From: Oxalobacteraceae bacterium
GTDB lineage: Bacteria; Pseudomonadota; Gammaproteobacteria; Burkholderiales; Burkholderiaceae_D
Length of the DNA stretch: 64,000 nt
Reading direction: 5' to 3'
Assembly: GCA_900299005.1 (NCBI GenBank)
Contig: OMID01000062.1
Coordinates: 38,543 to 102,542, forward strand
Shown here: positions 5,846 through 63,505 of the stretch, piece by piece
Layout of the letters: each line of letters opens with the position of its first letter
Position numbering within the stretch: the first letter of the stretch is position 1
Made by a program: the position numbers and the translations under genes
The notes under the pieces: generated by a model
Seen by the model: the letters and a program-made list of their open reading frames with translations, nothing else
What the model was told of the DNA's origin: nothing
The model's database searches: none

Positions 5846-8800
5846 ATGAATGCCCCAGCGCACCTTCCTTCCCTGCTGACTGACGCACCGGAAGGCACCC
5901 AGCCTCCCCGATTGCGGGAAATTCCCTACAACTACACCTCGTTTTCCGATCGAGAGATCGTGATCCGGTTACTAGGCGGCAGCGCGTGGGAGCTATTGTG
6001 CAGCTTGCGCGCCGCGCGGCAGACCGGCCGTTCTGCGCGCATGCTCTACGAGGTCCTTGGCGACATCTGGGTGGTACGGCGCAACCCTTACCTTCAGGAT
6101 GATCTGCTGGACAATCCGGCTCGTCGCGAAGCCTTGATCGATGCGCTATATCACCGCTTGGGCGAAGTTGAACGTCGTCGTCAGAGCGCTGAAGACGATA
6201 AGCGTGCCGACCCGCTCACCCGTGAGCGCAATGCCAAGGTGGGTACCTTGCTCGAGGCCGGGCGCCAGGCTGTCGAAACATTCGCGCGCGAGTTCGTGCA
6301 GATGCAAGATTTGCGCCGCCGCGCCTTGCGTGTGCTGGGACGCCATACCGAGCGGGATAACCTCAAATTCGATGGGTTGTCGCGCGTCTCGCATGTCACT
6401 GATGCCACCGATTGGCGTGTGGAATATCCCTTCGTCGTGATCACGCCCGACACCGAAGAAGAAGTCGCCGGTCTGGTCAAGGCGTGCATCGAGCTCGGTC
6501 TGACCATTATCCCGCGTGGAGGTGGCACGGGCTACACCGGTGGCGCGATACCCCTGACCCCAATGTCTGCCGTCATCAATACTGAAAAACTCGATGCATT
6601 AAGTGAGCTTGAGTTGCGTCGCTTGCCCGGAGTTGAGCATGAGTGCGCGACCATCCATGCGGGTGCTGGCGTGGTGACCAAGCGTGTCGCCGATGCTGCC
6701 GAGAGAGCAGGTTTCGTGTTCGCCGTTGATCCCACCTCCGCAGAAGCTTCCTGCATCGGGGGCAATATCGCCATGAACGCGGGTGGCAAGAAAGCTGTGT
6801 TGTGGGGAACGGCGCTCGACAATCTTGCCAGCTGGCGGATGGTGGACCCGAATGGCGACTGGCTGGAAGTCACGCGCCTCGATCACAATTTGGGCAAGAT
6901 TCATGAGGTCGAAGTCGCGCGTTTTAAGCTCGAGTGGACGCACCCTGCCGAGCGCGGGCGGCCGAACGCACCTTTCAAAACCGAGATACTGTCCATCGAA
7001 GGCCAGCGGTTCCGCAAGGCGGGTCTCGGCAAGGATGTGACCGACAAATTCCTCGCCGGATTGCCCGGCGTGCAGAAAGAGGGCTGTGATGGTCTCATTA
7101 CGTCGGCGCGCTGGATATTGCACAAAATGCCCAGACACGCCCGCACCGTCTGCCTCGAGTTTTTCGGGCAAGCGCGCGAAGCCATTCCCTCCATCGTCGA
7201 GATCAAGGCTTATCTTGATGCTGAAACGAAGCAGGGCGGCGCGATACTCGCCGGCCTTGAACACCTCGATGAGCGCTACCTGAAAGCCGTTGGCTACGCG
7301 ACCAAATCCAAACGCGGCGTGCTGCCGAAGATGGCCCTATTCGGCGACATCGTTGGCGACGATGAGGAAGCCGTGGCGCGCGCGAGCTCCGAAGTCATCC
7401 GCATTGCCAATAGTCGCGTGGGCGAGGGCTTTGTGGCGGTCAGCTCCGAGGCGCGCAAGAAATTCTGGCTCGACCGTGCGCGCACAGCGGCTATCGCGCG
7501 CCACACCAATGCCTTCAAGATCAACGAAGACGTGGTGATACCGCTAGATCGTATGGGCGAGTACACCGATGGTATTGAGCGCATCAATATCGAACTTTCC
7601 ATGAGCAACAAGCTCGAGCTGCTCGCCGAGCTATCAGCCTACTTTGAACGCGGGCAACTCAAGCTGGGCAAAAGCGAAGACACCGAAGGCTTTGAAATTC
7701 CACCCGCTGAATTGCTCGAAAACCGCGTTGCCGAGGCGCTGTCACTCATCGAGAGCGTGCGCTCGCGCTGGACCTGGCTGCTGGCCAACGTCAATGGGCG
7801 CCTCTCTGATACCCGGCAGATGATAATCGAGTACGGTTGGGACAAGCTGCTGCCCGAGGTCGATGCACGTCTCGCCACTCAGCCGCTCGCTACCTGGTTC
7901 GATGTCTTGCAAGACCGCACCCTGCGCATCTCATGGAAGGCTGAGGTGCGCGCACCCTTGCGCCAGATCTTCGGAGGCGCCGCCTTCCGTCCCATCCTGG
8001 AGGAATGCAATGCGATCCACAAGCGCGTGCTGCGGGGGCGCGTTTTCGTCGCTCTCCACATGCATGCGGGCGATGGCAACGTGCATACCAATATCCCGGT
8101 CAACTCTGACAATTACACGATGCTGCAGACCGCGCATGCGGCAGTCGAGCGCATCATGGCGCTGGCGCGTTCGCTTGATGGCGTGATCTCCGGTGAGCAT
8201 GGTATTGGCATCACCAAGCTGGAGTTCCTCACCGATGCCGAGATCGGCGAATTCCGCGACTACAAACAGCGCATCGATCCCGACGGGCGCTTCAACAAGG
8301 GCAAGTTGCTCGATTCGCCCGACTTGCACGCCGATCTGCGCAATGCCTATACGCCGTCATTCGGCCTGATGGGTCATGAATCGCTCATCATGCAACAGAG
8401 CGATATCGGGGCCATTGCCAATAGCGTCAAGGACTGCCTGCGCTGCGGCAAGTGCAAACCGGTGTGCGCCACGCACGTGCCACGCGCGAATCTGCTGTAT
8501 TCACCCCGCAACAAGATACTTGCGACATCGCTGCTGATCGAGGCCTTCCTTTATGAAGAGCAGACCCGACGAGGTGTCTCGATACGGCACTGGGAAGAAT
8601 TCGAGGAGGTGGCTGACCATTGCACCGTCTGCCACAAATGTGCGACGCCGTGCCCGGTCGATATCGACTTCGGTGATGTATCGATGAACATGCGCAACCT
8701 GCTGCGCAAGATGGACAAGAAGTCCTTCAATCCCGGGACGGCAGCCTCCATGTTCTTCCTCAACGCGACGGATCCGGCCACCATCAATGCGACACGCCAG

Positions 8801-9847
8801 TTAATGATCGGCTGGGGGTACAAGGCGCAGCGTTTTGCCCATGACCTGCTCAAGAAATTCGCGAAAAAGCAGACCAAGGCGCCACCGTCTACGCATGGCA
8901 AACCCCCGGTGCGCGAGCAGGTGATTCATTTCGTGAATAAAAAAATGCCGGGCAACCTGCCGAAGAAGGCAGCGCGTGCGCTGCTGGATATTGACGACGA
9001 TAATTTCGTGCCCATCATCCGCGATCCCAAGTCCACCAGTGCGGACACCGAGGCGGTGTTTTATTTTCCAGGCTACGGCTCCGAGCGCTTGTTCTCGCAG
9101 GTGGGGTTGGCCACCCAGGCCATGCTATGGCATGTGGGTGTGCAGACCGTGCTACCGCCGGGCTATCTGTGCTGTGGCTACCCGCAGCGTGGCTCGGGCG
9201 ATTTCGATAAGGCCGAGAAGATCATCACCGATAATCGCGTGTTGTTCCACCGGGTAGCCAACACCCTGAACTACCTTGATATCAAAACGGTGGTTGTCTC
9301 CTGTGGCACCTGTTACGATCAGTTGCAGGGCTACGAATTCGACAAAATTTTCCCGGGCTGCCGCATTGTTGATATCCACGAGTACCTGCTTGAAAAAGGC
9401 GTCAGGCTTGAAGGGGTTAACGGCGTGCGTTACATGTATCACGATCCCTGCCACAGCCCGATGAAGCAGCAGGATCCTCTGAAGACCGTAAACAGCCTGA
9501 TCACTACCGCCGATGCACAAAAGATCGAAAAAAATGACCGTTGCTGCGGCGAGTCTGGCACTCTGGCGGTTGCGCGCCCGGATATCTCCACGCAGATACG
9601 GTTCCGCAAGGAAGCCGAGATGGTCAGGGGCGCTGACAAACTGCGTGCCGATGGTTTCAAGGGCGATCTGAAGATCCTCACCTCATGCCCCTCTTGTCTG
9701 CAGGGCTTGTCGCGCTTCGGCGATGACGCGGGCACCGAAGCTGATTACATCGTTGTCGAAATCGCTCGCCATCTGTTGGGTGAGAACTGGATGCTCGAGT
9801 ATGTCGCACGCGCCAACGATGGCGGCATCGAACGCGTGCTGGTCTGA
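5846..9847 (+). CDS. DUF3683-type FAD-binding / 4Fe-4S / CCG-domain oxidoreductase (1333 aa)
   Basis: N-terminal [29 protein letters not shown] and [15 protein letters not shown]-oxidase motifs; HAGDGNVH and [17 protein letters not shown] and [11 protein letters not shown] ferredoxin motifs; CCG motifs. Confidence 0.9.
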
Positions 9848-48161: not shown

Positions 48162-50915
<2,754 letters not shown>

Positions 50916-61472: not shown

Positions 61473-61604
61473 GGATTACCGTTGAAGTTTGCGCCGCGAG
61501 AGGCGAAAAGCGAAAAGCAAGCAGCGAGTATAGCGCAGCGCGTCCCCGCGTCTGCAGACAGGATGTCCCTTTGCTAGAATGCTACAACGTGAGAATAACC
61601 AAAA

Positions 61605-62813
61605 ATGATGTCCGCAATGCCCTCATTACGACGTGCCGCCGTCCGCATGTGGCCAGCATCTTTCGCATTGTTGTTGCTGGCGGCTTGTGAAAAGCCGGAT
61701 CATTTGCCGACCGTCTCCGCGACCACCGCGCTTGCGCTGGGCAAGCTGATATTCCATGACACCTCGCTCTCTGCCTCTGGCAAGCAATCCTGCGCGAGTT
61801 GCCATTCGCCCGATCATGCGCATGCGCCATCGAATGCACTGCCTGTTCAGCTGGGCGGTGCGCGGCTTGATCAGTTCGGCATGCGCGCAGTTCCCTCGAT
61901 TCGCTACCTCGCGGCCACGCCTGCTTTTGCATTCGATGAGGAAGGCACGCCCTCTGGCGGATTCAATCGTGACGGCAGTGCCGAGACCCTGGCCGCACAG
62001 GCAGAGCGGCCCTTGTTGGCGGCCAATGAAATGGCGAACCTCACGCGTGCTGCCGTGGTGGACAAGCTGCGCCGGGCCACGTACGCCCCTGCCTTCCGGG
62101 CAGTTTACGGAGAAAAGAGTCTGGACGATGTCGACACGGCATTCGCGGCGCTCAGTGACGCATTACAGCGCTACCAGTTGGAGGCACCAGAATTTCACCC
62201 ATTCGATTCGAAATATGATGCCTACCTCGCGGGCAAGGTGGCGCTGACTGACGCCGAGCTGCGCGGGCTGCAGGTTTTCAATGACGATAAGCGCGGCAAC
62301 TGCGCTGCTTGACACCCCAGTGCGCAGCGTGAAGACGGCAGCCCGCCGCTGTTTACTGACTTTACCTACGATGCACTAGGTGTGGCGCGCAACAAAAGCA
62401 TCGCAGCGAATAACGATGCATTGCATCGCGATCTGGGATTGTGCCGGTCCGGTCGTACAGGGCGCGCGGCGAATCCTTCGGCCTGTGGCAAGTTCAAGGT
62501 GCCGACCTTGCGCAACGTGGCAACGCGCCAGGTGTTTTTCCATAATGGCCAAGTCACGCGCTTGCGGGATGCGGTTGCTTTCTACGTCAGCCGGGATACC
62601 CACCCCGAGAAGTGGTATCCGAGCGTGAATGGCAAAGTGAAAAAATTCGATGACCTTCCTGTGGCCTATCACCGCAATGTGAACGTGGAAGAAGTCCCCT
62701 ACGATCGCAAGCGCGGCGAAACACCGGCCTTGTCCGAGCAGGAGATAGAGGATGTGCTGGCCTTCCTGTACACGCTCAATGATGGTTACAGCGCACCGCG
62801 AAACACGAAATAG
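61605..62813 (+). pseudogene. Di-heme cytochrome c peroxidase / MauG family lipoprotein interrupted by one in-frame TGA at 62310-62312 (pseudogene, sequence error or recoding)
   Basis: Lipobox LLLAAC; LGKLIFHDTSLS...SCASCH; the second motif reads GNCAA*HP and the frame continues open as HPSAQREDGSPPLFTDF...FKVPTLRNVA...FHNG to 62813. Confidence 0.8.
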
Positions 62814-63151
62814 ACGGCGCCCAGCAGGCACAGTCCGGCCCACAGAAAATCCATCCTGAATGATTCGCCCATGTAGAACACGGCAAAGGGCACAAACACG
62901 GCCAGCGTAATGACCTCCTGCAGAATCTTCAGCTGCCCGAGGCTAAAGTGCTGAAAACCGATTCGGTTGCCCGGTACTTGCAACACGTACTCGAAGAAGG
63001 CGATTCCCCAGCTTACCAGCACAGCGATCCACCACGGCTTGTCGGCCAGGTGGCGAAGGTGTGCATACCAGGCAAAAGTCATGAAGATATTCGAGAGCAG
63101 CAGCAGGCCAAGGAAGGAAATCGGGCTTGCAGGAGAGAGAAGCGGGTTCAT
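62786..63151 (-). CDS. DMT family small membrane protein (DUF486-like)
   Basis: SNIFMTFAWYAHL, SWGIAFFEY.LQVPGNRIG, QLKILQEVITL. Confidence 0.88.
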   Translation of the reverse strand: MNPLLSPASPISFLGLLLLSNIFMTFAWYAHLRHLADKPWWIAVLVSWGIAFFEYVLQVPGNRIGFQHFSLGQLKILQEVITLAVFVPFAVFYMGESFRMDFLWAGLCLLGAVYFVFRGAL

Positions 63152-63295: not shown

Positions 63296-63505
63296 ATGCC
63301 CAATTGGAGTTACCTGATTGCCCGTCTAGTCAGCGCCATCGGCTCATGGCTGGACGCGAGCAATCTTCGCAATCGTGTTTACCGGCTGCAGCAAGAAAAT
63401 GAGCTGCTGCGCGTGGCGCTGGATGACATCCGACGCATGGATCCCGAGGGCCGTCTTGGTTGGTACGCACAGCAGGCATTGGAGCGGGCCGATTTGCGCG
63501 ACTGA
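63296..63505 (+). CDS. Hypothetical small protein (69 aa) with a coiled-coil segment
   Basis: Fits cleanly between the DMT and LysR genes; heptad-like LRNRVYRLQQENELLRVALDDI; weak RBS. Confidence 0.55.
   Translation: MPNWSYLIARLVSAIGSWLDASNLRNRVYRLQQENELLRVALDDIRRMDPEGRLGWYAQQALERADLRD

Follow-up and report, generated by a model that had tools for sequence, protein, structure and literature searches.

The closest solved relative of the gene considered here is BthA, a di-heme peroxidase of Burkholderia thailandensis for which the structures 6NX0 and 6V59 are available (Rizzolo et al. 2019, PMC6405878). This enzyme has no known physiological role, and functions have been assigned to several of its residues: His192 belongs to the 5-coordinate heme, Glu277 has an acid-base role, His371 belongs to the 6-coordinate heme and lies in the second CxxCH motif, Tyr463 is the distal ligand of the 6-coordinate heme, and Cys415 and Cys430 form a disulfide (PMC6405878). 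For BthA, we use the residue numbers of this paper throughout; the numbering of the 6NX0 crystal chain is offset from them by 66.

The gene that we compare with this enzyme lies in a 64,000-nucleotide stretch of DNA, the whole of which is called the window below. As judged from its sequence, it encodes a periplasmic lipoprotein of the di-heme peroxidase/MauG superfamily that is closest to BthA of Burkholderia, and in the window its frame is interrupted by a TGA codon within the second heme motif. The reading that we favour, with a probability of about 0.8, is that this is a real, recent and strain-private nonsense allele, which makes the gene, an accessory one, a young pseudogene.

The interrupted gene

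The gene occupies positions 61605-62813 of the plus strand and forms a single frame of 402 sense codons plus the terminal stop, in which the TGA at 62310-62312 is the sole internal stop. It is found in the context KRGNCAA-TGA-HPSAQ, with C as the next base (TGA-C), and takes the place of the codon for Cys236, the second cysteine of the second CxxCH motif. The two open reading frames listed for this region, 61605-62312 (235 aa) and 62382-62813 (143 aa, with a GTG start), are the two halves of the 402-codon frame. An earlier reading of the window (the sequence-only reading) had described one frame of 402 codons broken only by this TGA (GNCAA-TGA-HP), with intact CASCH, lipobox and FKVPTLRNVA/FHNG motifs, and translation gave the same frame and returned every one of these motifs, FKVPTLRNVA and FFHNG both being present in the read-through product.

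The translated frame starts with a signal peptide (61605-61688) that carries the lipobox L-A-A-C (LLLLAAC), with the codon for Cys28 at 61686-61688; this motif suggests that the peroxidase is a lipoprotein. The first heme motif, C63-A-S-C66-H67 (61791-61805), is intact and aligns with the 5-coordinate (peroxidatic) heme site of BthA (His192). Residue 93 is Met (ATG, 61881-61883), where conspecifics have Thr (ACG); this C-to-T change, at 61882, is private. The second heme motif, C233-A-A-TGA-H237 (62301-62315), has a private C-to-A change at 62312 and aligns with the CxxCH motif of the 6-coordinate heme of BthA (His371). A hairpin is located 3' of the TGA (62318-62358 for the minimum free energy stem, with the core CGGC-AGCCC-GCCG at 62336-62348), and the C-terminal remnant frame of 143 aa, which opens at an in-frame GTG (62382-62813), contains Cys280, Cys294 and Tyr327 (62583-62585) and lacks a signal peptide of its own. 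All of these features are on the plus strand.

At the 5' end, the run of A residues just upstream of the ATGATG start (61597-61604) lacks one base that is present in L035, a conspecific contig (indel at 61601). On L035, the gene caller began the peroxidase at Met15 (MWPASF...), and the true start codon is therefore uncertain. At the 3' end, the gene overlaps by 28 nt (62786-62813) with the 3' end of a convergent gene on the minus strand that encodes a DMT_6 protein (PF04342; 121 aa, 62786-63151), an overlap that also occurs in all conspecific contigs.

The read-through product matches the Pfam family CCP_MauG (PF03150) over residues 43-211 (E 6.5e-33; 114.9 bits, the cut-off being 25.6), and a match to the Pfam family Cytochrom_C spans the TGA. 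Among solved structures, the best match found with phmmer is BthA (6NX0/6V59; E 5.3e-73, 249.7 bits, residues 41-394); the E-values are about 1e-46 for structures of MauG and 1e-10 to 1e-16 for those of canonical CcpA. The scores with the NCBIfam equivalog models of MauG (84.6 bits, cut-off 443.85) and MbnH (93.1 bits, cut-off 362.85) are far under both cut-offs, so the peroxidase is not an equivalog of MauG or of MbnH, and no mau genes were seen near it.

The TGA position in relatives and conspecifics

In orthologues that belong to other species of this genus and are 68-80% identical, the codon at this position is TGT or TGC in 11 out of 11 cases. Contigs of the same species, found via one 90% protein cluster that holds the proteins P0002 (388 aa) and P0122 (402 aa), could be compared from different samples and assemblies (ENA ERZ27292200, ERZ23495344, ERZ23495462 and ERZ11848522; JGI 3300047403; Logan SRR1522973 and ERR2346693). 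A scan of the metagenome contigs available for searching, with the exact sequence and any base allowed at the variable position, gave no match. All seven conspecific contigs have TGC, with C at 62312, at a nucleotide identity of 99.6-99.9% and with conserved gene order. Since the conspecific contigs uniformly have TGC, the C-to-A change is private to the strain in the window. The intact allele P0122 differs from the read-through product of the window only in having Thr at residue 93 instead of Met, and Cys236 where the window has the stop; in the protein collection it is recorded on nine contigs, and the truncated product of 235 aa on the window contig only. Thr93 is itself invariant in the 18 sequences compared, being Thr in the 11 genus orthologues and encoded by ACG in the seven conspecific contigs. 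Those of the best 120 database homologues that span the site have CxxCH there, except for one variant with Cys replaced by Arg. Thus, the homologues with TGA in the same column that the sequence-only reading had proposed to look for were not encountered among the 11 orthologues, the seven conspecific contigs or the database homologues. Flags for one TGA on the orthologues in genomes G007, G011, G012 and G015, considered as a sign of shared recoding, turned out to be the natural stops after ...TLTD(E/Q).

Two other sequences with a changed heme motif came to our attention. The orthologue P0010 (GCA_013573275.1, JACCEC010007307.1; L053:2001-3218), which is 80% identical and has the same gene neighbourhood, carries CGT (Arg) and hence CAARH at the same second cysteine of the second heme motif that is replaced by TGA in the window, and P0006, a relative 98% identical to P0010, has CAACH. 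In a paralogue of the CCP family (L042/L043; G033:C100:96-1010, minus strand), which is 30% identical and comes from a genome of a different family, the first heme motif has an in-frame TGA in place of its first cysteine (AGNLA-TGA-ASCH). This TGA is shared by none of 40 relatives and no SelA was found in G033 (81% complete), on which grounds a conserved selenocysteine column was rejected; the TGA probably reflects a further nonsense mutation or an error, and G033 also has an intact paralogue that is 53% identical to this copy. The TGA in G033 and the Arg in P0010 look like further independent loss-of-function hits. The coincidence of lesions at heme motifs largely follows from where we looked, since only heme motifs were screened.

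Expected effect on the protein

The C-to-A transversion at 62312 turns the TGC codon of Cys236, which in the second heme motif is the second of the thioether cysteines, into TGA, and translation is expected to stop after Ala235. The predicted product of 235 residues would still have its signal peptide and lipobox and, at the N-terminus, the domain with the 5-coordinate heme, and would lose His237 and Tyr327, the putative axial ligands of the second heme, together with the whole C-terminal domain. In BthA and MauG both hemes act together, and in bacterial cytochrome c peroxidases electrons enter via the second heme. Because of this cooperation and this route of electron entry the fragment is expected to be inactive or unstable, and, as it lacks the C-terminal domain and both ligands of the second heme, it very probably has no enzyme activity; the truncated protein would then be non-functional. 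The 143-aa frame downstream is not a plausible independent gene, since it has neither an export signal nor a heme motif.

Some function might persist if termination is leaky and a near-cognate tRNA for Trp or Cys reads through the weak stop UGA-C, giving a little full-length protein. The stop indeed stands in the context TGA-C, the leakiest stop context in work on E. coli, and the frame stays open beyond it. However, no suppressor tRNA with a TCA anticodon was found in the genome, and insertion of Trp would leave a single-cysteine CxxWH site; the bacterial Ccm system is not known to mature such single-cysteine heme sites. As the allele is private to one strain there is also no sign of selection for a read-through state, and we regard functional read-through as very improbable.

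Loss of this protein may well be tolerated. Of 24 genomes sampled from the genus, 11 have a close orthologue, and the own genome contains an intact paralogue of the canonical cytochrome c peroxidase type (C67:15006-15761), from which we conclude that the gene is accessory and dispensable in the genus.

Selenocysteine considered as an explanation of the TGA

An in-frame UGA can also be read as selenocysteine, which in the present case would create a CxxUH heme attachment site. What makes this idea attractive is that the UGA falls exactly on a functionally critical position that is homologous to cysteine, that a SelD protein is encoded in the genome (434.8 bits) and that a hairpin is present at a SECIS-like distance from the UGA. 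None of the 11 orthologues and none of the seven conspecific contigs described above has the TGA. The SelD protein and the hairpin can be judged from the genome sequence, which comprises 2.92 Mb in 122 contigs and is 99.91% complete with an estimated contamination of 2.1%.

A search of this genome for selA, selB, selD and selC, proposed in the sequence-only reading, yielded selD and none of the other three. No SelA is encoded in the 99.91%-complete genome, and no SelB scored above the cut-off: the highest-scoring frame (188.9 bits) has 415 aa, the size of EF-Tu, and matches the SelB model over its GTPase half only. A search for the winged-helix domain of SelB found none. ARAGORN detected 41 tRNAs, none of which is a tRNA-Sec or has a TCA anticodon. 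Two hits of the tRNA-Sec family RF01852 above threshold (50.6 and 47.1 bits) were discarded, as they are tRNA-Ser genes with tga and cga anticodons according to ARAGORN. TGA is the commonest stop codon in this genome, terminating 947 of the open reading frames of at least 300 codons, against 390 with TAA and 179 with TAG.

The presence of SelD (C43:43974-44900) is accounted for by a tRNA 2-selenouridine synthase, SelU, in the same genome (C29:28624-29535, 358.1 bits). Where SelD occurs by itself, such an enzyme is usually the reason. The organism thus appears to employ selenium for tRNA 2-selenouridine (SelD plus SelU), with the selenocysteine pathway absent. Within the genus the selenocysteine trait is patchy, as follows from the occurrence of SelA in 11 of 56 other genomes. 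The SelA-bearing members G013, G016, G017 and G018 were searched as well, but they gave weak, distant matches to the peroxidase and no close orthologue.

The hairpin, which the sequence-only reading had called weak and unconvincing, does exist, but it is not better than expected by chance: its folding energy is -16.3 kcal/mol, as compared to -14.3 +/- 2.5 kcal/mol for shuffled sequences (z = -0.78), and 44 of 200 shuffled sequences fold as well. Comparison with Rfam gave no SECIS family match, the only hit being sX2 below threshold (13.8 bits, E 1.4). Moreover, the sequence 3' of the TGA, including the hairpin, is identical in the conspecific alleles that encode cysteine; being unchanged in TGC alleles, the hairpin did not arise together with the TGA.

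Because SelA, SelB and tRNA-Sec are absent, the hairpin is not significant and relatives have no TGA, we consider selenocysteine refuted, its residual probability being close to nil; in this genome the only meaning left for UGA is a stop. The same holds for a variant in which the UGA is decoded by machinery encoded on unassembled DNA to give a CxxUH heme c site with a selenoether bond, which is extremely improbable. Such an attachment site is not known to have been described, and a literature search gave no example. The sequence-only reading had placed selenocysteine last among its explanations, in agreement with both the missing machinery and the lack of a homologue with TGA.

Nonsense allele or sequence error

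The rival that deserves most attention is an assembly, consensus or base-call error, in which case the organism has TGC and an intact gene. The window is a single base away from TGC at 62312, where every other conspecific sequence has C, the genome is a draft of 122 contigs with 2.1% estimated contamination, and the truncated product is unique to the window contig. These observations give the error some plausibility, but the surrounding sequence argues against it. Over 58.6-65.8 kb (window numbering, carried past the end of the window), the window differs from every covering conspecific contig at eight positions, two of which are in the peroxidase gene and six elsewhere. Of the latter, those at 63358, 64886, 64994, 65474 and 65561 are synonymous and one, at 65148, is missense (His to Tyr). 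Being mostly synonymous, these private differences behave as real strain variation under purifying selection. The window thus seems to represent a distinct lineage with about 1 private SNP per kb, a density that is much higher than usual consensus error rates.

Both private changes in the peroxidase gene are non-synonymous, T93M (61882) and C236stop (62312), and both are predicted to be damaging. Against an error at 62312 stands the second private change, at the invariant residue 93, within the same gene. Differences from L035 number 3 in the peroxidase gene, none of them synonymous, as compared to 14 synonymous and 7 non-synonymous ones in the flanking genes; with very few sites and a one-sided Fisher value of about 0.06 this is suggestive of relaxed constraint in the peroxidase gene, without being significant. 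No frameshift or stop was found in any other gene over the roughly 10 kb compared. The sequence-only reading had pointed to anomalies in the SecA and DUF3683 genes as a reason to suspect errors; these did not hold up, as both genes are intact. SecA is one open frame of 917 aa (48162-50915) that is free of internal stops and covers positions 1-785 of the 787 in the model, and the DUF3683 gene is one open frame of 1333 aa (5846-9847), likewise with no internal stop.

The second damaging change in the gene and the mostly synonymous private SNPs nearby make us lean towards a real allele, and we infer that the base at 62312 is correct rather than a consensus error; the error is unlikely, though considerably less so than any form of read-through. 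The explanation ranked first in the sequence-only reading, a base-call error or a recent TGC-to-TGA nonsense mutation, is supported, as the genome lacks selA, selB and selC and the TGA was found in none of the homologues.

A genome-wide screen for genes broken by stops, based on codon-bias log-odds, returned 421 unspecific candidates. A stricter six-frame screen gave 15, all of which are two adjacent genes in the same frame, and it was insensitive since it missed the known TGA site. Just outside the window, at C62:104340-104345 (65798-65803 in window numbering), three substitutions within 6 nt change Thr-Thr to Pro-Asn in a hypothetical gene of 129 aa; this clustered polymorphism is common to the conspecific contigs L035, L038 and L040 and is not found in the others.

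As a nonsense allele, the interrupted gene is a case of ordinary strain-specific gene decay in a freshwater betaproteobacterium, the gene affected being that of an accessory peroxidase of the periplasm. Since the intact allele was found for this species in several further samples, the locus can be regarded as a natural presence/loss polymorphism. In annotation, the frames 61605-62312 and 62382-62813 are best joined into a single feature and labelled as a pseudogene of the BthA-like di-heme peroxidase type. A tempting false lead, selenocysteine in a heme c attachment motif, is removed.

Comparison with known systems

The locus has one feature in common with bacterial selenoprotein genes such as that of the formate dehydrogenase FdhF, namely an in-frame UGA at a site homologous to cysteine. 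It is unlike these genes in that SelA, SelB and tRNA-Sec are missing, a significant SECIS element is absent and the UGA is not conserved.

MauG, the di-heme enzyme of tryptophan tryptophylquinone biosynthesis, and the canonical bacterial cytochrome c peroxidases (CcpA) belong to the same Pfam family as the encoded protein, CCP_MauG. With BthA, the likeness extends to individual residues in the sequence alignment: His67 corresponds to His192, Glu142 to Glu277, His237 to His371 and Tyr327 to Tyr463, and Cys280 and Cys294 to the disulfide-forming Cys415 and Cys430. There are also differences with BthA. The encoded protein is shorter, 402 residues as compared to 477 in the crystallised BthA chain, and the neighbours that were called, CNNM/CorC, DMT_6, LysR and Sbt_1, do not include a gene for a purple acid phosphatase (phosA). 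Furthermore, the window copy has a stop instead of the second cysteine of the 6-coordinate heme motif, so that, as encoded, it has one of the two CxxCH motifs of the family intact (CASCH) and the other as CAA-TGA-H. Since both motifs are present in the intact allele P0122, the window holds a broken copy of a member of the BthA-like di-heme peroxidases.
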